41,838 nucleotides of DNA, from the IMG/VR virus record IMGVR_UViG_3300033565_000009, positions 1-41,838 of that record; one strand, written 5' to 3'. Below, one piece after another: positions 3,102-24,368 of the stretch; position 1 is the stretch's first letter, and every line of letters begins with the position of its first letter. This stretch comes from a virus (taxonomy: Duplodnaviria > Caudoviricetes). A program made the translations under genes and the position numbers. The notes under the pieces are model-generated. The model was given only the letters and a program-made list of their open reading frames with translations. It made no database searches and had not been told where the DNA came from.

Positions 3102-4226
3102 CTACATTGCCGCCAGATCAAACAGATCCAACTGTTTTGCTCGTTGCCGTGCCCGTGGTGCTGACCCCTCGTCGATCCGCCTAGCCGCTTTGTACTCGTT
3201 GTACTGCTGACGGTATCTATAGCTGTCCCCAAACACGTTCCACGCAGCTTTTACCAAATTGGGCTCAAAGGGCCGTATCTTTTCTAAATCATCTACCGCT
3301 TTCGCCGATATGGAGCACCCGCAGCAGCCTGTGCGCGTCAATCCGTATACCTCGTAGGCATCCGAATAGCGGATTTTGTAGTAATTCTTATACCATTGCT
3401 TATCTGCGTCCGACACATAATACAATGGCCGGAGTCTGTATTTCCCGTCAGCCGTTTCGGAAAAGCACATGGACGTATTATCCTTGCGCGGCACAGATCG
3501 CATACCGCCCTCGTCTCTGCGTTCCCCCGTGATTACCATATCAAACGGCTTTTGGGCGCGGTGTGCCACTTGCTTTTTGCAGTAATCGCAGCATTTATCG
3601 CTTACTTTAAACGGGATTGGATTCTCAATAATAAAGTCGAGCATATATTTTGACGAGTTTATGACGAGCTGGATATCTGGCCGTGGTTCACCGGCAGAAT
3701 TGCACCCGCACAGGAAGTTTATTGTCGATTCACACTTCGGGTAGCGTTCTTTAAGCTCTGCCCGCTTTGCCGCCTTATCCTCTGCATTTGCGTATTCTGC
3801 GGCGATTGACAACGGAATGTTTTTCTTCTGAACACCCTCTAATCCGCTTGACATGATTTTTGAAACAAACGGCAGCCCATATTCCCTTGTAGCCTGTATT
3901 ATGTTCTTTTTAGGCCGATGGGTGGTGATTGTGATACCGTACATCTCCTCCATATGGCGGACTTGGCGTTTTGTCGCCTCCATCTCCAAGCCTGTGTTAA
4001 AAAAGCAGTATTGAACCGGTGGAAGATTGAAGATTTTGCGCACCATCTCGATCAGGTGTAGCAGGATATCGCTGTCACTCCCACCAGAATAGGAGCAGAT
4101 CGCGTTCGGGTGCTCAACCAGTCTTTTTGCGATTATGCTAATAATGGCCCTAAATTTTGCTGGCGCGTCAAAATCCGCATAATCCGGTCGGTCTGTGTAT
4201 ACCTTGCTTTTGAACGTGGTTTTCAT
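3102..4226 (-). CDS. PAPS reductase family (CysH/DndC-like) protein
   Basis: PP-loop SYSGGSDS, CCDYCKK, TGERRDE, RTGCCGC; start moved to MKTTFK after SD GAGGGG. Confidence 0.85.
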   Translation of the reverse strand: MKTTFKSKVYTDRPDYADFDAPAKFRAIISIIAKRLVEHPNAICSYSGGSDSDILLHLIEMVRKIFNLPPVQYCFFNTGLEMEATKRQVRHMEEMYGITITTHRPKKNIIQATREYGLPFVSKIMSSGLEGVQKKNIPLSIAAEYANAEDKAAKRAELKERYPKCESTINFLCGCNSAGEPRPDIQLVINSSKYMLDFIIENPIPFKVSDKCCDYCKKQVAHRAQKPFDMVITGERRDEGGMRSVPRKDNTSMCFSETADGKYRLRPLYYVSDADKQWYKNYYKIRYSDAYEVYGLTRTGCCGCSISAKAVDDLEKIRPFEPNLVKAAWNVFGDSYRYRQQYNEYKAARRIDEGSAPRARQRAKQLDLFDLAAM

Positions 4227-5707: not shown

Positions 5708-6389
5708 TATTAATATTCACCACCTTAGATTTATTACCGTCCCAATTAAGGGCATTTTTACACCAATTTCTTATTTGAGACCGTGGATTACTTTTCTTTT
5801 TGAGAGGTTTACCGATAAGCCATGTTGACCATGCTTTTACCTGCTCCAATACGTCCAGTGTTGGAAATTCAACAAGTAAAGATCTGATAAAATTAAGGTC
5901 CTTTTCAAAATTAAAAGGATAATCAGGAACGTTTTTTAAGGTTTGAAGTATGACCCGCTCGGAGTCAGCAAGATCATCAAAAAGAATAACATCGTTTTGT
6001 TTTATTTCGTTTAGTTTATTTAATGTGGCACTATTGTCGGCACAGTTGTCGGTATAACTGTCGGCACAGTTGTCGGTATAACTGTCGGCACTATTTGCCT
6101 GCAATTCTGCTGACAATGAAATAAGATGATAAATAGCAGATTGGTTACCTTTCCTTTGTCGCCATTCAATACGACCTTTTAGTTTTAATTCATTCCGGGC
6201 TTCGGTTACTCCCCTTGGGGACAACCCAGTCTTTACGCATAACACCGATACGGCCACCGCAAACTCATCTGCCCATGCTGCCTTGTTGTTTATGTGCAAT
6301 AAACCATGCCATAAAGCAATCGCAGATAGTGACAACCGGTTTGTTTCGAGCCAATCATAGAATGCGTTAATCTCCCGGATATAGTTCAT
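5673..6389 (-). CDS. Phage replication initiator (DnaD-like N-terminal winged helix)
   Basis: MNYIREINAFYDWL..LW..L..INNK..W family-type start, internal iterons, upstream of DnaC-like gene; start moved to 6389. Confidence 0.8.
   Translation of the reverse strand: MNYIREINAFYDWLETNRLSLSAIALWHGLLHINNKAAWADEFAVAVSVLCVKTGLSPRGVTEARNELKLKGRIEWRQRKGNQSAIYHLISLSAELQANSADSYTDNCADSYTDNCADNSATLNKLNEIKQNDVILFDDLADSERVILQTLKNVPDYPFNFEKDLNFIRSLLVEFPTLDVLEQVKAWSTWLIGKPLKKKSNPRSQIRNWCKNALNWDGNKSKVVNINNATNTSRAYRG
6024..6094. repeat. Iterons / replication origin inside the initiator gene
   Basis: TGTCGG every 12 bp (6035, 6047, 6059, 6071, 6083); 24-bp unit repeated 2.5 times, next to an AT-rich tract. Confidence 0.8.
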
Positions 6390-11395: not shown

Positions 11396-11752
11396 ATGGA
11401 GTTGTCTGAATTTGGCCAATATATTGAGAAACTCAGAATTGAGCGTGGAATAGACAGCCGGTCAGAGTTAGCTCGGATGGCTAAAACTTCTGCAACAACT
11501 ATATCTCGGGTTATCGCAGGAAAACAAAAACCAACTCCTGAAACTCTTGGAGCTTTAGCTCCCCATCTCGGAGTTAGTTATGAACACTTAATGCAGAAGG
11601 CAGGGTATCTATTAGTTGCAGAAGAAGCATCTACATATAATTTTAAAAATAATAATACGACTTTGTATGATAAAATTGATAAATTAAGCGCAAGAGATAG
11701 GGCGGTTGTAGAAGCTCTTATCCAGGCGTTAAGTAGTAAGGGTGATGAATAA
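11396..11752 (+). CDS. CI-like repressor (XRE HTH, no S24 peptidase domain)
   Basis: HTH SRSELARMAKTSATTISRV..GK..P; directly upstream of the integrase. Confidence 0.85.
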   Translation: MELSEFGQYIEKLRIERGIDSRSELARMAKTSATTISRVIAGKQKPTPETLGALAPHLGVSYEHLMQKAGYLLVAEEASTYNFKNNNTTLYDKIDKLSARDRAVVEALIQALSSKGDE

Positions 11753-13224
11753 TGCTACGGGCAGTAGCTTATGCACGATACAGTTCTGATAATCAAAGGG
11801 CCGAATCTATTACTGCTCAATTGCGTGCTATTCACTCATATGCACTTAAAGAGTCAATTGAAATAATCAAAGAATATATCGATGAAGCCGAGACTGCCAC
11901 TTCTGATGAGCGTCCTGATTTCCAAAACATGATAAAAGAAATAGAGAAAACTAAACCAGATCTGGTTTTGGTTCATAAGCTAGATCGTTTTGCACGTGAT
12001 AGAATTGATGCTGGTCATTATCGCTGGTTGTTAAAAAAGAAAGGTGCTAGGCTTGTTGCAGTTGAACAGGACTTCGGTAACGGGCCAGAAGCTGCACTGA
12101 TGGAATCAACAGTTGAAGGTGTTGCTGAGTACTTTTCCAAAAATTTATCAAGAGAAGTAAAAAAAGGTCTTTTTGAAAATGTTATACAAGGTAAACATTG
12201 CGGAGGTTTGCCACCATTAGGTTATGATATTGATCCTGATAAAATGTATATTATAAATGAGCATGAAGCCCAAGCAATTAGAATGATATTTGATATGAAG
12301 ATACAAAATATGAATTATCAAATGATTATGGACGCACTAAATAAAGCTGGATATAGAAGCAAAAGAGGAAAAATAATTGGAAAAAATAGTCTTCATGATA
12401 TACTAAGAAACGAAAAATATATAGGTAATTATATTTATCGTAAAACATCATCATCAAATAGCAGAGTTGCTGCCGATCCATTAGCGACAGTTCGTATTGA
12501 AGGTATCATCCCACGTATTATTGATGATGAAACATTTTATAAAGCTCAGTCTATGATGGATGGTAGTAAGCAACAGCCAAGGATGAGAAGTGATACTGTT
12601 TATATTTTATCCGGTATAGCCAAATGCGGTGAGTGCGGACAGGCTATGACTGGAAGCTCTCATGTTAATCGTGGTAGGAAATATGAATACTACCGTTGTA
12701 ATAATGCAAATAGGACTGGAGGTAAATCATGTAGCAATCTATACAGGTACAAAAGATCAACACTTGAACAAGATGTAATCGAACGTACACAAGAAGCTTT
12801 AGATATTTTACGAGCTAATATTGATAATGAGATTGATGTAATTTATGAAGCAATCATCAATAAAACGGAAAGTGAAAATGCTGAACGGCAGTCATTACAA
12901 AAAGAGATTAGAAAAATCAAAATAGAAATTGATAACCTAATTAACTCTGTTGCGGCTGGTGTAGACGCTAAAATACTAGCTCCTAAAATAAATGACTTAG
13001 GAAGGAAAAAAGACGCCTTAGAGAAACGTAAAAATAGAATAGAGATTAATAATATTTCGAAAGATGTGGTGCGAGAATATTTATTAAAAATAATAAACAC
13101 TTCAATTAATCCTGAAGAACCAGTTACTTGCCGAGAAGTTTTAAAAGTATTATTGGATGAGGTTATTATTTACGATAAAAATAACATATATATCCCTCTT
13201 GAAAGATTTGGCTTAGCGCGGTAG
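11752..13224 (+). CDS. Large serine recombinase (phage integrase)
   Basis: YARYSS catalytic motif, DRFAR, recombinase domain, zinc ribbon CGECG...YYRC...C, coiled coil. Confidence 0.95.
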   Translation: MLRAVAYARYSSDNQRAESITAQLRAIHSYALKESIEIIKEYIDEAETATSDERPDFQNMIKEIEKTKPDLVLVHKLDRFARDRIDAGHYRWLLKKKGARLVAVEQDFGNGPEAALMESTVEGVAEYFSKNLSREVKKGLFENVIQGKHCGGLPPLGYDIDPDKMYIINEHEAQAIRMIFDMKIQNMNYQMIMDALNKAGYRSKRGKIIGKNSLHDILRNEKYIGNYIYRKTSSSNSRVAADPLATVRIEGIIPRIIDDETFYKAQSMMDGSKQQPRMRSDTVYILSGIAKCGECGQAMTGSSHVNRGRKYEYYRCNNANRTGGKSCSNLYRYKRSTLEQDVIERTQEALDILRANIDNEIDVIYEAIINKTESENAERQSLQKEIRKIKIEIDNLINSVAAGVDAKILAPKINDLGRKKDALEKRKNRIEINNISKDVVREYLLKIINTSINPEEPVTCREVLKVLLDEVIIYDKNNIYIPLERFGLAR

Positions 13225-14370: not shown

Positions 14371-14464
14371 ATGTCTTTAAAAATTAATTTTTCGGGACAG
14401 GCAATTTAATTTCCGCACAGCATATATTGTGGTAAACCACATCAACTGAATGGAGGTATACCAC

Positions 14465-15511
14465 ATGGATCCATTAACGTTATTTTGCGCTGGGGCCACT
14501 CTCTGGACCGCCTTACACTTCATACCTGGCCGGACCAAATTGAATCAGGATGAACTTATCTTAAAGACTTGGGAGCAAACAGGAACCACCAACAAAGAAT
14601 GTCTGTTGCCGGTTAAAAAGAAAGGTGCTTGGTTCTTGCCGGCTGGTCTCTCACCCCGGGATATTGAAAAGACAATTCCGGCTTTAGCCTATCAACTGAA
14701 TGCCCATATAGAGATGGAAACACGGGGCAAGGCGGTACTGCTCCACGTACATCCCGGCCAGCTGCCACGTAAAGTACCATATACCCTCCAGGATCTTAGC
14801 AGATGCAAACTTGGCCTGGTCATGGGTCATACCTGGACGGAGGCATGCCTGACCTTTGACCTAAATGATAGTAATCCATACATTTTGACAGCCGGCGGTG
14901 TAGGGATGGGTAAATCCAACTGGCTTAATCTTGTCCTCAGGCAGATCAACGACAATTACACCCCTGACCAGGTGCAATACTTTTTAATTGATCTCAAACT
15001 AGGAGTAGAACTTGGACAATGGGCTGATTCACCTATGTGTGCAGGTACGTGCTGGGATCCGTCTACTGATCAGCTTCCGGCCATGCTTGGTTATCTGACC
15101 CGGGAAGTACGTAGGAGGATGAAGCTATTTAAAAAGCACGGTGTTTATAAGGTGGATGAATATAACCGACTTGATGTTAAGCAATTACCCTATTTGCTCC
15201 TCGTGGTGGATGAGTATGCGGAACTGAATCGTGATAAAGATGCTGAAGATAAATTGCAATCCTTGCTTCAGATCGGGCGCGCTGCAGGGCTTAGAGTTAT
15301 AATGTCTACCCAACGCCCAACGCACGACAATATCAACACTAGTATAAAAGGATTGATACCAACCAGATTATGTTTTAGCGTTGCTGACCGAGTAAATAGT
15401 GATGTCGTATTAGATCAATCTGGAGCTGAAGACTTGGGCGGAATTCCAGGGCGTGCTTTGCTTTTATCTGGGGCACGGCTGCGCGAAGTGCAAGTCATGA
15501 TCGCTTCTTAA
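14465..15511 (+). CDS. FtsK/SpoIIIE-family ATPase with N-terminal membrane anchor
   Basis: Walker A GGVGMGKS, IDLK, Walker B LLLVVDEY, GRAAG, TQRP; SD GGAGG at 14452. Confidence 0.9.
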   Translation: MDPLTLFCAGATLWTALHFIPGRTKLNQDELILKTWEQTGTTNKECLLPVKKKGAWFLPAGLSPRDIEKTIPALAYQLNAHIEMETRGKAVLLHVHPGQLPRKVPYTLQDLSRCKLGLVMGHTWTEACLTFDLNDSNPYILTAGGVGMGKSNWLNLVLRQINDNYTPDQVQYFLIDLKLGVELGQWADSPMCAGTCWDPSTDQLPAMLGYLTREVRRRMKLFKKHGVYKVDEYNRLDVKQLPYLLLVVDEYAELNRDKDAEDKLQSLLQIGRAAGLRVIMSTQRPTHDNINTSIKGLIPTRLCFSVADRVNSDVVLDQSGAEDLGGIPGRALLLSGARLREVQVMIAS

Positions 15512-15630
15512 TCATCAGCGATCCTTCCTTATTGGGGTTTTTTATTAATGGATTTATCGGTCTTTGGGCCTGTACACCTGTATATTACTGGCTATATGGT
15601 TTGCCAGTAGAAAGATATGGAGGGATATAC

Positions 15631-16239
15631 GTGGAGATCAGAGATCAGAGAGTACTGGAAGGGATAGAAAAGCATAGGTACCTGAGAGCGGACCAGGTTG
15701 CGGAATTGTATTTCCGAACTATTAAAAACAGCGATCAGAGAAAAAAGAAAGCAGCTGCCAGGCTCTTGGTGCTATACCGGTCAAAACTTGTGCAGCGCAC
15801 CAGGTACCCAGGGGATCCTTTTATTTATTTTGCCCGGGGGAATAAATACAGCCATAAACTGCAGCACTACCTTACCATCACGGATGTGCTGCTTCAGATC
15901 CTGGACCTAATACCTGCCAGTTCAAAAGTTGAGTATGAGGTTGAATACTCCCTGGGAAGCGGTATCATTGCCGACCTGGTGATCAGATACAGCAATCCAT
16001 TTCGGCAAGAGAAAAAGACGTATTATATTGAGATTGAGCTGGACAGTTCTGGCAGTATCATTGAGAAGCTGCGGAAGTATGAAGAAATTGAAATCGAGGA
16101 CAGCACAGTGGTAGTAATCGCAAAGCACCGATACACCATAGAAAAAATTCAATCCACTTTATTCACGGTGCCGATCCGCGCTATCGACATACGAGACATT
16201 CCCGGAGGATGGAATTCTGATGGAAGCAATTTGCTTTAA
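15631..16239 (+). CDS. Replication-relaxation (Replic_Relax) family protein
   Basis: Winged-helix-like N-terminus, H in LQHYL, IADL..IEIE nuclease-like motif; GTG start after GGAGG; follows FtsK. Confidence 0.75.
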   Translation: MEIRDQRVLEGIEKHRYLRADQVAELYFRTIKNSDQRKKKAAARLLVLYRSKLVQRTRYPGDPFIYFARGNKYSHKLQHYLTITDVLLQILDLIPASSKVEYEVEYSLGSGIIADLVIRYSNPFRQEKKTYYIEIELDSSGSIIEKLRKYEEIEIEDSTVVVIAKHRYTIEKIQSTLFTVPIRAIDIRDIPGGWNSDGSNLL

Positions 16240-19601: not shown

Positions 19602-19615
19602 ACCTTACCCCATAT

Positions 19616-19643
19616 AAAAAGCCGCCCATCTTTGAGCGGCTTT
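19616..19643 (-). terminator. Intrinsic terminator after the tyrosine recombinase (probably bidirectional)
   Basis: AGCCGCTCA-AAGA-TGGGCGGCT followed by TTTT. Confidence 0.8.
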
Positions 19644-19647
19644 AACC

Positions 19648-20487
19648 TTAGAAATACCTCGTATAAATTTCTTTCCTCCGTGGCCCTGATAGCTGAGCGT
19701 ACAGCATTGTTGTCTCTAGTTTTTGGTGCCCAAGTAAAGTTTGAATCCCTTCCATCGGAGCCCCGTTATTTAAAAGGTGCGTAGCATATGAATGCCGTAG
19801 CTTGTGTGGATAGACATTCACCGGTACTTCAGACCTCCTGGCAACCCGCTTAATAACATATCTTAACTGGTCAATGCCCATCCGGTGCGGTTTCCGCTCA
19901 GTAACGAATAAAGCGATATCAGTATCTTTCCTTTTAGACAAATACTTTTTGAGCCAGATCGCTGCCTTGATGCTGAAATACACTTCCCTTTCCTTATTAC
20001 CCTTACCCAGTACGATACATGACCGATTATCCCAGTCAATAGCATTCCTGTTAAGTCGATGTATCTCTCCGATCCGGCAGCCGGTTGTGTACATAAATTC
20101 AATCAGAGCATGCTCCAATGGAGTTATGCATCCTTCTCTGAGTAATTCTGTATCTTCTTCACTGAGCGCTTTTGGAACACGTTGCCCGAGCTTTGGTTCT
20201 CGTAACTTTGCAGCCGGGTTCCTGGGACAATAACCTTCATCAGTTGCCCAACGAAAAAAGGCTCGAATGAAACGAATTCGTCCACCCAAGCTGGCAGGTT
20301 TAAGATGAGCGCACTTCTCAATAAGATAGCTCTTGAGATCTACCAGATTGATCTCTTCAATATCTGTCTCCCCAAAATGCCTGATCAGTAGATTAATTTG
20401 TACCCGGTATAACCTTAAAGTGGCTTGAGAATACCCCTCAATGGTTTTGTCGGCAACATAGAGCTGCCATGCTTCACTAAGTAGCAT
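19648..20487 (-). CDS. XerD-like tyrosine recombinase adjacent to the cassette array
   Basis: Core-binding N-terminal domain, TGCRIGE, GKGNKER, HKLRHSYATH, LLGH, TT.LY. Confidence 0.95.
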   Translation of the reverse strand: MLLSEAWQLYVADKTIEGYSQATLRLYRVQINLLIRHFGETDIEEINLVDLKSYLIEKCAHLKPASLGGRIRFIRAFFRWATDEGYCPRNPAAKLREPKLGQRVPKALSEEDTELLREGCITPLEHALIEFMYTTGCRIGEIHRLNRNAIDWDNRSCIVLGKGNKEREVYFSIKAAIWLKKYLSKRKDTDIALFVTERKPHRMGIDQLRYVIKRVARRSEVPVNVYPHKLRHSYATHLLNNGAPMEGIQTLLGHQKLETTMLYAQLSGPRRKEIYTRYF

Positions 20488-20529
20488 GATATGATACCTC
20501 CCGCAAGATATTTTTGTTTCCCGCAGTAG

Positions 20530-20603
20530 ATGTGTATAACAGGCTGCACCTGCGGGGGTGCTTTTCGATCAGGTAGCTAATCCGACCTAGCCTGCTTACA
20601 CAT
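20530..20603 (-). ncRNA. Structured three-way-junction leader RNA of the recombinase
   Basis: P1 AGCAGGCT/AGCCTGTT, P2 GGTCGG/CTGATC, P3 GCACC/GGTGC with loop CCCGCA complementary to two downstream TGCGGG sites. Confidence 0.6.
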
Positions 20604-20604
20604 T

Positions 20605-20633
20605 ACCATATCATTCCAATTAGGACAAGTCAA
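20605..20633 (-). promoter_or_regulatory. SigA-type promoter of the recombinase
   Basis: TTGACT-17-TATGGT with extended -10 TG. Confidence 0.65.
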
Positions 20634-20635
20634 TC

Positions 20636-20663
20636 TTCAAGTAACGCTATTCCGTTGACATAA
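20636..20663 (-). repeat. Candidate recombination site 3 (11-6-11)
   Basis: TTATGTCAACG-GAATAG-CGTTACTTGAA. Confidence 0.75.
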
Positions 20664-20711
20664 TTTAACAAAATACGCAAATATTTGACATAACGTATAC
20701 AGAAATATACG

Positions 20712-20912
20712 TCAGTCCATCTCATCCTTGGTAATACCGAACTCTTTGATAAGTTCTTTTATAACCAGGTCAAGGGCTTGCATCTGTCCCAGGAGATTAT
20801 CTTTCATGCCGTCAAAGTCTGGATCGTTGATTTCGTTCTTCAGCATTTGCCTTTTCCAGACATACCGCTTGATTATGTCTATGATTTTTCCTCTCCTGAA
20901 TGTCTCTGCCAT
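20712..20912 (-). CDS. Conserved cassette protein, copy B (66 aa)
   Basis: SD GAGGTGA before MAETF; paralogue of 21305-21505. Confidence 0.8.
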   Translation of the reverse strand: MAETFRRGKIIDIIKRYVWKRQMLKNEINDPDFDGMKDNLLGQMQALDLVIKELIKEFGITKDEMD

Positions 20913-20982
20913 CCTGATCACCTCGTTGGTTTATATACGTGATCAGAAAGGATTTTCCTTTATTATGCCGAGGTTATTGTAA

Positions 20983-21165
20983 TTAGCCCTTAAAGTTAGG
21001 ATTTACAGTTGGATATTTATCGTATCCGGTTCCTTCCCACTTGGGATCATCTTTGTACTTACCTTCTTTCCAGCATTTTACGCAACATTCGTTACTATTG
21101 AAAAAGCTGTGCTTGGGGTTTCGTTCTCCACCACAATATTTGCATTTAATTTCGGTGTCAAACAT
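20983..21165 (-). CDS. Small Cys-rich (CxxC...CxxC) cargo protein
   Basis: SD GAGGAGGTGG; CKYC and CVKC. Confidence 0.7.
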   Translation of the reverse strand: MFDTEIKCKYCGGERNPKHSFFNSNECCVKCWKEGKYKDDPKWEGTGYDKYPTVNPNFKG

Positions 21166-21228
21166 ATTTCCACCTCCTCAGATGTTATTCTGCTAAAGTA
21201 TATTCACCGTATACAAATGTATGCGTTA

Positions 21229-21256
21229 TGCAAGTAACGCTATTCCGTTGACATAA
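21229..21256 (-). repeat. Candidate recombination site 2 (11-6-11)
   Basis: TTATGTCAACG-GAATAG-CGTTACTTGCA. Confidence 0.75.
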
Positions 21257-21304
21257 TTTAACAAAATACGTAAATATTTGACAAAACGTATACAGAAATA
21301 TACG

Positions 21305-21505
21305 TCAGTCCAGTTCATCTTTGGTAATACCGAACTCTTTGACAAGCTCTTTTATAACTAGGTCAAGGGCTTGCATTTGGCCCAGGAGATTATCTTTCAT
21401 ACCATCGAAGTCTGGATCGTTGATCTCGTTCTTAAGCATTTGCCGTTTCCAGACATACCGTTTGATTATGTCTATGATTTTTCCTCTCCTGAATGTCTCT
21501 GCCAT
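21305..21505 (-). CDS. Conserved cassette protein, copy A (66 aa)
   Basis: 64/66 aa identical to copy B. Confidence 0.8.
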   Translation of the reverse strand: MAETFRRGKIIDIIKRYVWKRQMLKNEINDPDFDGMKDNLLGQMQALDLVIKELVKEFGITKDELD

Positions 21506-21520
21506 CCCGATCACCTCATG

Positions 21521-21925
21521 TTAATTATAGGTGATTAGTTCAGGATTTTGAAATATGTTTCCGATTATTTCCCATGACATTTCCATGTCGCTTCTGCAAT
21601 GCCAAAAATCTTCGTTAATCGGCTGGGGATATAAAATATACATCGGAACACCTGTTTCACGCCACTTCACCGCAAAAACTCTGTGAGATCCGTCACGCCA
21701 AACCCTCAGTATATCTCCTTCATATACTTCTCGTTTGTTTTTATCACGCAGGCCGGTAAATTGTTGTAAGACAAAACGTTCTTTAAACATATCAGGGTCT
21801 TTAATGATGTCTAAATAGAATATATTTTTAGGATTTTTACCAGGTTGTATTGCAATAAAAATCTCTCCGCCACTTAAAAACTCACACCTCCGTGTATCCC
21901 ATGCCCTAAACCTTATGTCTCGCAT
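21521..21925 (-). CDS. YopX family protein
   Basis: MR.I.FRAWD, QFTGL.DKN..EVYEGDI, EIIGNI..NPEL. Confidence 0.9.
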   Translation of the reverse strand: MRDIRFRAWDTRRCEFLSGGEIFIAIQPGKNPKNIFYLDIIKDPDMFKERFVLQQFTGLRDKNKREVYEGDILRVWRDGSHRVFAVKWRETGVPMYILYPQPINEDFWHCRSDMEMSWEIIGNIFQNPELITYN

Positions 21926-22005
21926 TCTTGCAAAATCACTCCCCTCCATGTTTATCCAAAGCCTTTTTAAGTATCGAAATATTATTGTATGCTTTCGTAT
22001 ACATA

Positions 22006-22033
22006 TTCAAGTTACGCTATTCCGTTAGCTAAA
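22006..22033 (-). repeat. Candidate recombination site 1 (11-6-11), overlapping the upstream gene's stop codon
   Basis: TTTAGCTAACG-GAATAG-CGTAACTTGAA. Confidence 0.75.
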
Positions 22034-24344: not shown

Positions 24345-24368
24345 AAAGCCGCCCATCTCTGAACGGTT
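24345..24368 (-). terminator. Terminator-like hairpin; near-copy of 19618-19641
   Basis: AAAGCCGCCCATCTCTGAACGGTT, 21/24 identical to the other copy. Confidence 0.55.

Follow-up and report, generated by a model that had tools for sequence, protein, structure and literature searches.

The leaders of phage transcripts can harbour small structured RNAs whose loops pair with two sites on the transcript to which they belong. One of them is the C4 antisense RNA of phages P1 and P7 (Rfam family RF01695), which controls an antirepressor gene. Members of another Rfam family, int-alpA (RF02996, typed 'Gene; sRNA'), are presumably located, as the family name implies, 5' of an integrase-type or AlpA-type gene. 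The int-alpA motif is attributed to Weinberg et al. (2017). The name is absent from the main text of PMC5737381, and the papers found to contain it use it, in the portions available, as an item of a list or in an account of gene order. A literature search, whose scope did not extend to the supplement of Weinberg et al. (2017), which may discuss a pseudoknot or a palindrome, found neither a functional study nor a dimer reading of int-alpA.

According to an excerpt of PMC4825925, the CI RNA of phage P4 pairs with the sequences seqA and seqC. Its targets are placed both upstream and downstream of the RNA. The same article describes IsrK of Gifsy-1 as a phage leader RNA that, in its terminated short form, activates its own mRNA in trans by strand invasion; the words 'kissing' and 'dimer' do not appear in the main text of that article. 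RNA homodimers that serve a regulatory role are seldom encountered in nature (excerpt of PMC7357161). Dimerisation loops of retroviruses, which serve packaging, may carry a palindromic hexamer in a hairpin loop (HIV-1 DIS) or the sequence GACG, a structurally proven self-kissing loop of the Moloney viruses (MoMuLV/MoMuSV) that forms a stable two-pair kissing homodimer (excerpt of PMC7357161). Finally, the transposable element IS10 is protected from external promoters (Davis, Simons and Kleckner 1985, as cited in a passage of PMC13181058). Here we compare with these systems the leader of a recombinase gene identified in a phage genome.

Genetic context of the leader

The analysed window (41,838 nucleotides, the virus record IMGVR_UViG_3300033565_000009) represents a temperate phage with Bacillota-like relatives. 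On its minus strand, genes of the terminase, portal, capsid and tail region are followed by three 22-bp sites with small genes between them, then by a XerD-like tyrosine recombinase, which is the second recombinase of this phage, and by putative lysis genes (Table 1). The leader under study comprises the 146 nt preceding the recombinase gene. FtsK/SpoIIIE and replication-relaxation genes (positions 14450-16239, plus strand) reside between the lysis genes and the serine integrase. Two related terminator-like hairpins on the minus strand (19612-19643 and 24345-24366; 91% alike over 22 nt) are situated 3' of the recombinase and 3' of an 810-aa tail gene, respectively.

Table 1. Features of the leader and its surroundings (positions refer to the window)
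Feature	Position	Strand	Basis
dif-like site 1, at stop codon of last tail-region ORF	22009..22030	-	
Putative cassette 1: YopX gene and 69-aa ORF	21254..22008	-	
dif-like site 2	21232..21253	-	
Putative cassette 2: 60-aa ORF and second copy of 69-aa ORF	20661..21231	-	
dif-like site 3, arms around GAATAG, 6 nt 5' of -35 box	20639..20660	-	
Predicted -35 box TTGACT	20628..20633	-	
P0 5' strand, expected in read-through transcripts only	20604..20614	-	
Predicted extended -10, TG-A-TATGGT	20605..20613	-	TGnTAnnnT in 33/37 leaders
P1-P2-P3 three-way junction (int-alpA core)	20532..20601	-	Rfam alignment, covariation, fold
P2 hairpin, 9-nt loop L2 at 20581-20573	20567..20587	-	covariation and fold
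Palindromic hexamer UAGCUA in L2, predicted self-kissing site	20574..20579	-	palindromic in 30/37 leaders
P3 hairpin, loop L3 CCCGCA at 20556-20551	20546..20561	-	covariation and fold
T1, first target CUGCGGG, likely decoy	20520..20526	-	covariation with L3
T2, second target UGCGGG, SD-overlapping	20500..20505	-	covariation with L3
P4 weak hairpin AUAUC/GGUAU, T2 in 8-nt loop, covers SD 3' end	20494..20511	-	
Shine-Dalgarno (SD) GGAGG	20497..20501	-	sequence; 9 nt 5' of ATG at 20487
P0 3' strand, over SD-ATG spacer and start codon	20486..20496	-	
XerD-like tyrosine recombinase, 279 aa	19648..20487	-	PF00589 E 4e-34; XerD 1a0p E 4e-31
Serine integrase	11752..13224		

The three dif-like sites, arranged in direct repeat (22030-20639, minus strand), delimit two small blocks of genes with a common end of 287 nt (94% identical), and together they constitute a candidate integron-like array. 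A dif-like pattern, drawn from the observed sites themselves, was present in 42 of 115 loci and matched the sense strand 44 times upstream of the recombinases (326 kb) versus 5 times downstream (316 kb), an enrichment by which the sites are linked to the recombinase. In the fetched loci the cassettes of the window gave one 70-nt blastn match and were not seen in any altered order; small portions of two DNA sequencing runs, in themselves uninformative, contained no joints. Therefore the influence of the leader on the rate of cassette shuffling, put forward in the preliminary description, stays a conjecture.

Relationship of the leader to the int-alpA family

Homologous recombinases were gathered from three collections and a covariance model was built from 27 of their leaders. 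Searches with it returned 24 matches in one set of 100 sources and 19 in another; among sampled genomes, 6 of 125 and 2 of 151 contained a match. The final alignment contains 37 distinct leaders; duplicate loci and weak hits (L126, L127, L154 and a second leader class, L094, L167 and L183) were left out, and all leader counts given below treat related sequences as independent. A loose pattern scan of viral contigs yielded 120 loci, mostly chance matches with few real members, while a scan for the second class yielded five loci, one already in the set and four without the motif.

The predicted fold of the leader in the window is a three-way junction (-29.8 kcal/mol, z -4.15), a stability equalled by none of 200 shuffled sequences. 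Across the alignment, 94% of 773 cells are paired (a count that takes in three pairs of loop L2, in an alignment fitted to the nested structure), and double changes occur in 17 of the 21 pairs. None of 500 shuffles scored as high, and helices slid out of register were paired in 31-40%. G-U combinations outnumber A-C both in the stems (46:13) and in helix P0 described below (57:17), which fits an RNA of the sense strand. These comparisons indicate that the leader is a real, strongly covarying RNA element.

A scan of the window against Rfam at the gathering level gave no match. When aligned directly to RF02996, the leader covers all 71 model positions with 20.3 bits (E 0.061; cut-off 35.8). The cut-off is passed by four leaders of homologous recombinases (L180, L091, L386 and L374; 35.9-39.9 bits), which share one covariance model with the leader of the window; in total 6 of 40 related loci reach the gathering score, the other two being leaders of replication-type genes. 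As in int-alpA, there is a three-stem junction with covarying helices directly 5' of a recombinase gene (PF00589), and the CUAG and CGAAAA junction letters, the pyrimidine-rich P3 loop and the complementary 3' end are common to both. The leader differs from the model in its longer P2 with a 9-nt loop, and T2, P4, the SD overlap and P0 all fall beyond the 71 modelled positions. Judged by these alignments, with its score below the cut-off, it is probably a divergent member of int-alpA and not a C4 RNA.

The parallel with C4 drawn in the preliminary description was thus not borne out: neither the window nor the 40 related loci match RF01695 or c4-a1b1, and membership of IsrK was rejected in the same way. 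The layout is also different, since a single loop meets two identical sites, both downstream, whereas the targets of CI lie on either side of the RNA; the word complementary to L3 occurs within 200 nt upstream in 2 of 37 leaders (1.1 expected), i.e. at chance level. Moreover, the gene behind the leader encodes a recombinase and not an antirepressor. What remains in common with C4 and CI is the general plan of a small structured RNA of a phage leader, whose loops pair with two sites on its own transcript.

Loop L3 and its two targets

On the minus strand, the complementary words of the leader were confirmed at the positions first given for them (CCCGCAG at 20556-20550, CTGCGGG at 20526-20520, TGCGGG at 20505-20500 and GGAGG at 20501-20497). 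G20550, the seventh base of CCCGCAG, forms the closing pair of the 5-bp P3 stem, which leaves a free loop of 6 nt (CCCGCA). TGCGGG alone is not a rare word (14 matches in the window versus 15.7 expected); two copies within the 44-nt tail of the leader were obtained in 1 of 200,000 shuffles.

Covariation upstream of homologous recombinases had been proposed as a check of the claim that this loop reaches the recombinase SD by pairing. The claim gains support from the alignment, in which both sites are Watson-Crick complements (at least 6 nt) of the leader's own L3 in 37/37 cases. When loops were swapped among leaders, both sites matched in a mean of 6.0 of 37 (maximum 16), and the observed mean complement length was reached in 0 of 20,000 permutations. 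All ten leaders outside the model training, one of which (L367) is nearly identical to a training sequence, pass as well. The lack of conservation that would have spoken against the preliminary description was therefore not observed. The complements span 6-8 nt and T2 lies 16-20 nt 5' of the start codon, while the words themselves differ, e.g. CCCGCA/TGCGGG in the window, CCTGGA/TCCAGG in L164, CCCGTA/TACGGG in L095 and CCTTGG/CCAAGG in L108. In a tree built from 33 recombinase proteins (three of 36, L153, L215 and L220, were shorter than 230 aa and were left out, as was the second L174 leader), the 12 words of L3 require at least 21 changes, versus 24.2 for shuffled labels. Thus the covariation of loop and targets is not one inherited event.

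The two targets are closely balanced: their predicted duplexes with L3 differ by a mean of 0.16 kcal/mol, T1 being stronger in 13 and T2 in 17 of 37 leaders. Their spacing is conserved (16-23 nt). T1 is synthesised about 20 nt before T2 and lies 4-16 nt (median 9) from P1. The minimum-energy fold of the window (ViennaRNA) pairs T1 with T2 over 8 bp, which would hide both sites and leave the SD mostly paired; this state competes with pseudoknots, and the folding model has no means of ranking the two.

A weaker form of this two-site layout is seen past the end of the model in the 22 Rfam int-alpA hits obtained in sampled Gammaproteobacteria, a count that omits L402 because it duplicates L393. 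The shorter site has a mean length of 4.77 nt there, versus 3.93 nt for swapped loops (reached in 0 of 20,000 trials) and 3.42 nt for shuffled tails; in 11 of the 22 hits the second site has at most 4 nt of Watson-Crick complementarity. The visible part of S1 Table of Rivas (2020) gives 23 annotated pairs for int-alpA, and the RF02996 model contains 17 nested pairs. The difference suggests an annotated pseudoknot of about 6 bp, so that the L3-T1 pairing is probably already part of the Rfam annotation.

The palindromic loop L2

Of the 37 leaders, 30 have a perfectly palindromic hexamer in loop L2, and six different words account for this (TAGCTA 10, TGATCA 8, TCATGA 5, TCGCGA 4, TAATTA 2 and TGCGCA 1). 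No palindromes are found when the frame is slid by 1-2 nt (0/37), and at most 16 arise when the halves are swapped between sequences. The central pair of the hexamer is complementary in all 37 leaders, and double changes were counted 16 and 18 times in its two inner pairs. Adjacent bases are unable to pair within one strand, and therefore the complementarity of the two central bases of L2 cannot reflect pairing in a single strand. A nearby cis partner for L2 was found in 2 of 37 leaders (1.75 expected), i.e. at chance level. Thus, as far as the aligned sequences indicate, L2 is a hairpin loop whose self-complementarity is retained under sequence change.

The remaining seven hexamers are imperfect (TAGCTC 4, TTGCTC 2 and TCGCTC 1); three of the seven keep only the central GC, with a predicted self-duplex of -1.7 to -2.1 kcal/mol, and the value for the palindrome TAATTA is -0.4 kcal/mol. 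The L2 word carries no tree signal (18 changes versus 18.1 for shuffled labels), and the almost identical recombinases of L115 and L118 are preceded by different palindromes. The swapping of leaders as modules between phages may account for this without selection for new codes.

In the 22 gammaproteobacterial int-alpA hits, L2 contains an even palindrome of at least 4 nt in 12 cases and a GACG tetraloop, resembling the loops of the Moloney viruses, in 7. The palindromic hexamer likewise recalls HIV-1 DIS. Unlike in the retroviral loops, whose origin is unrelated, the hexamer is not flanked by the conserved purines on which DIS depends, and the role proposed for dimers of the leader is translational feedback rather than packaging. 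S1 Table of Rivas (2020), in the part available, flags 7 to 11 extra loop covariations for int-alpA, and we infer that the L2 signal is among them, without interpretation; the main text of that article contains none of 'alpA', 'palindrom' and 'dimer'.

Predicted helices over the ribosome binding site and the promoter

A stem of at least 5 bp (P4) that presents T2 in a short loop can be formed in 32 of 37 leaders, versus 22.0 for swapped strands, and its observed mean length was reached in 0 of 20,000 swaps. Compensatory changes include ATACC/GGTAT, ACCAAT/GTTGGT and AACACT/GGTGTT. The P4 of the window is weak (-1.0 kcal/mol) and covers about half of the SD.

The leader is preceded by a promoter-like sequence (TTGACT-17-TATGGT with the TG extension), from which a +1 near 20599-20597, at the foot of P1, is expected. 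A loose -35/-10 pair is found in 30 of 37 leaders (by a loose definition, without a control), and the extended -10 is at the same place in 33 of 37 (2.3 expected from shuffles). The region of the -10 pairs with that of the start codon to form helix P0: the predicted energy is -17.0 kcal/mol for each leader's own strands, -14.1 for swapped strands (the observed value reached in 0 of 20,000 swaps) and -7.7 for shuffled ones, and compensatory changes extend into codon 2. The 5' strand of P0 lies 5' of the expected +1. This helix would be possible only in read-through RNA, which it would silence. Addition of the upstream sequence lowered the predicted accessibility of the start in 33 of 37 leaders, although any added sequence raises pairing somewhat. 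As in IS10, read-through RNA would thus have its translation start sequestered; unlike IS10, the leader would contain a loop-loop switch as well.

No intrinsic terminator follows the leader on the minus strand of the window, and no U-tract follows P1. U-runs of at least 5 were found in 2 of the 37 Bacillota-type leaders and, among the 22 Rfam hits, in 3; no conserved terminator was detected after P1 across the leaders. A terminated short form is therefore unsupported here. The terminator-like appearance of the P3 hairpin on the plus strand was discounted, as its T-run is missing in L002.

Genes replacing the leader

Among 115 distinct homologous loci, the place of the leader is occupied by a divergent small ORF in 22, of which 12 encode Cro/C1 HTH proteins (Pfam), one has a weak RHH match and six look alike by eye. 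Such an ORF is present in 0 of the 27 RNA-bearing loci; 66 of the 115 loci were classed as neither.

Proposed mechanism and alternatives

We consider it an even chance that the leader is a transcript-counting translational repressor of the recombinase, whose dimers hand L3 over to the SD site. Transcription would start at the foot of P1. T1, made first, would trap L3 as a pseudoknot and leave the SD under the weak P4 only, so that a lone mRNA would be translated. With growing numbers of transcripts, L2-L2 contacts would join one leader to another or to a shortened form; one L3 would then kiss T2 in the P4 loop of the partner and lock its SD, which would result in a sequence-coded negative feedback that needs no protein. 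Read-through transcripts coming from the cassettes or the tail genes would be kept silent by P0, formed over their start codon. The words of L2 and L3 would encode specificity between related phages. The junction, the contacts of L3 with T1 and T2, the L2 palindrome, P4 and P0 all emerge from sequence comparison; the steps of the switch and its direction (dimer off or dimer on) are what we infer beyond it. Repression is favoured indirectly, because repressor-type genes fill the same slot in homologues lacking the RNA, because the words of L2 and L3 change fast, and because repression would be the one effect open to a shortened RNA whose L3 is free.

The opposite direction is built from the same anatomy of L3 sites and palindrome. 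A lone transcript would be off, with L3 on its own T2, and L2-L2 dimers would move L3 to T1 of the partner and free the SD, so that the recombinase would be made only on strong induction. The isoenergetic T1 and T2 are compatible with this, the LexA-type boxes reported below for 16 of 37 promoters would suit an induction threshold, and IsrK (PMC4825925, excerpt) provides a precedent for a leader RNA acting in trans on its own long mRNA to change its translation, although the leader differs from IsrK in having a self-complementary loop, and the window has no terminator for a short form like that of IsrK. We consider this direction unlikely, given that T1 is made about 20 nt earlier than T2 and, at 4-16 nt from P1, is probably reachable in cis, and given the two arguments for repression drawn from the shortened RNA and from the repressor-type genes standing in the leader's place.

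It is also rather improbable that the switch operates solely in cis, as in the first option of the preliminary description (a pseudoknot), with L3 on T1 during transcription and later on T2, giving each mRNA a short translation window, and with the palindrome serving otherwise. Both pairings can be drawn in cis, with conserved spacing and balanced energies, and 7 of 37 L2 hexamers are imperfect. However, such a switch leaves unexplained a loop that remains self-complementary through six hexamers and GACG, and it gives no reason for the frequent changes of the word at all three sites.

Least probable by far is that the symmetry belongs to the DNA, as operators bound by proteins, as an antisense promoter or as a substrate of recombination. 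Sites of DNA binding are typically palindromic, and P0 is an inverted repeat; in 19 of 37 leaders its 3' half matches an extended -10 on the antisense strand. However, an antisense -35/-10 pair over the start codon is found in 0/37, which led us to reject such a promoter. In addition, G-U is preferred to A-C on the sense strand, the palindrome is free to change its letters, L3 covaries with its targets, and members of the family precede different genes. A metabolite riboswitch was rejected by reasoning, given the free variation of the letters in the loops and the DNA-handling genes, unrelated to each other, that lie downstream.

The repressor reading may, somewhat more tentatively, be extended to int-alpA as a whole: the family would be a protein-free repressor that keeps count of its copies, a homodimer of which, held by a retrovirus-like kissing loop, locks the partner's ribosome binding site, and whose two fast-changing words set incompatibility groups across the phages and islands of Bacillota and Proteobacteria, in front of recombinases and replication genes alike. 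A dimer-gated mechanism has apparently not been described for int-alpA before. If true, an uncharacterised Rfam family would gain a concrete mechanism. It would also become clear how phages limit a recombinase encoded next to candidate cassette sites, and that the part of a Cro-type repressor gene can be played by an RNA. The natural orthogonal loop and target words (28 combinations among the 33 leaders on the tree) would serve as a kit of independent RNA switches.

Further observations on related loci

In several homologous loci (L163, L166, L090, L172, L177, L096 and others), a divergent gene of the Cro/C1 HTH or RHH-like type replaces the leader about 90-140 nt upstream of the recombinase; this is the case even beside a recombinase 83% identical to that of the window. 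Locus L174 carries two recombinase genes, each with a leader (3885-4003 and 6023-6140); the L2 palindromes of the two are identical and their L3 words almost so.

A LexA-type box lies upstream of many promoters: with at most one mismatch it is present at 16 of 37 (2.2 expected), and in its perfect form at 8 (0.06 expected). Examples are L091, L095, L099, L006, L153, L370, L372 and L174:6023. The box and an abutting recombination site are nearly exclusive (both in 1/37), and the window has the site and no box.

The leaders of the second class (L094:2598-2712, L168 and L183:3884-4003) have another sequence and the same plan, i.e. a palindromic loop, and a loop matching two sites, the second of them on the SD; in this class a U-rich stretch follows P1. 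Furthermore, in other viruses int-alpA-like leaders precede phage replication-type and HNH-like genes, as named from their sequences (L242, L375-L385, L281 and L411-L425), and these leaders also contain palindromic L2 loops (TAATTA, TTGCAA).
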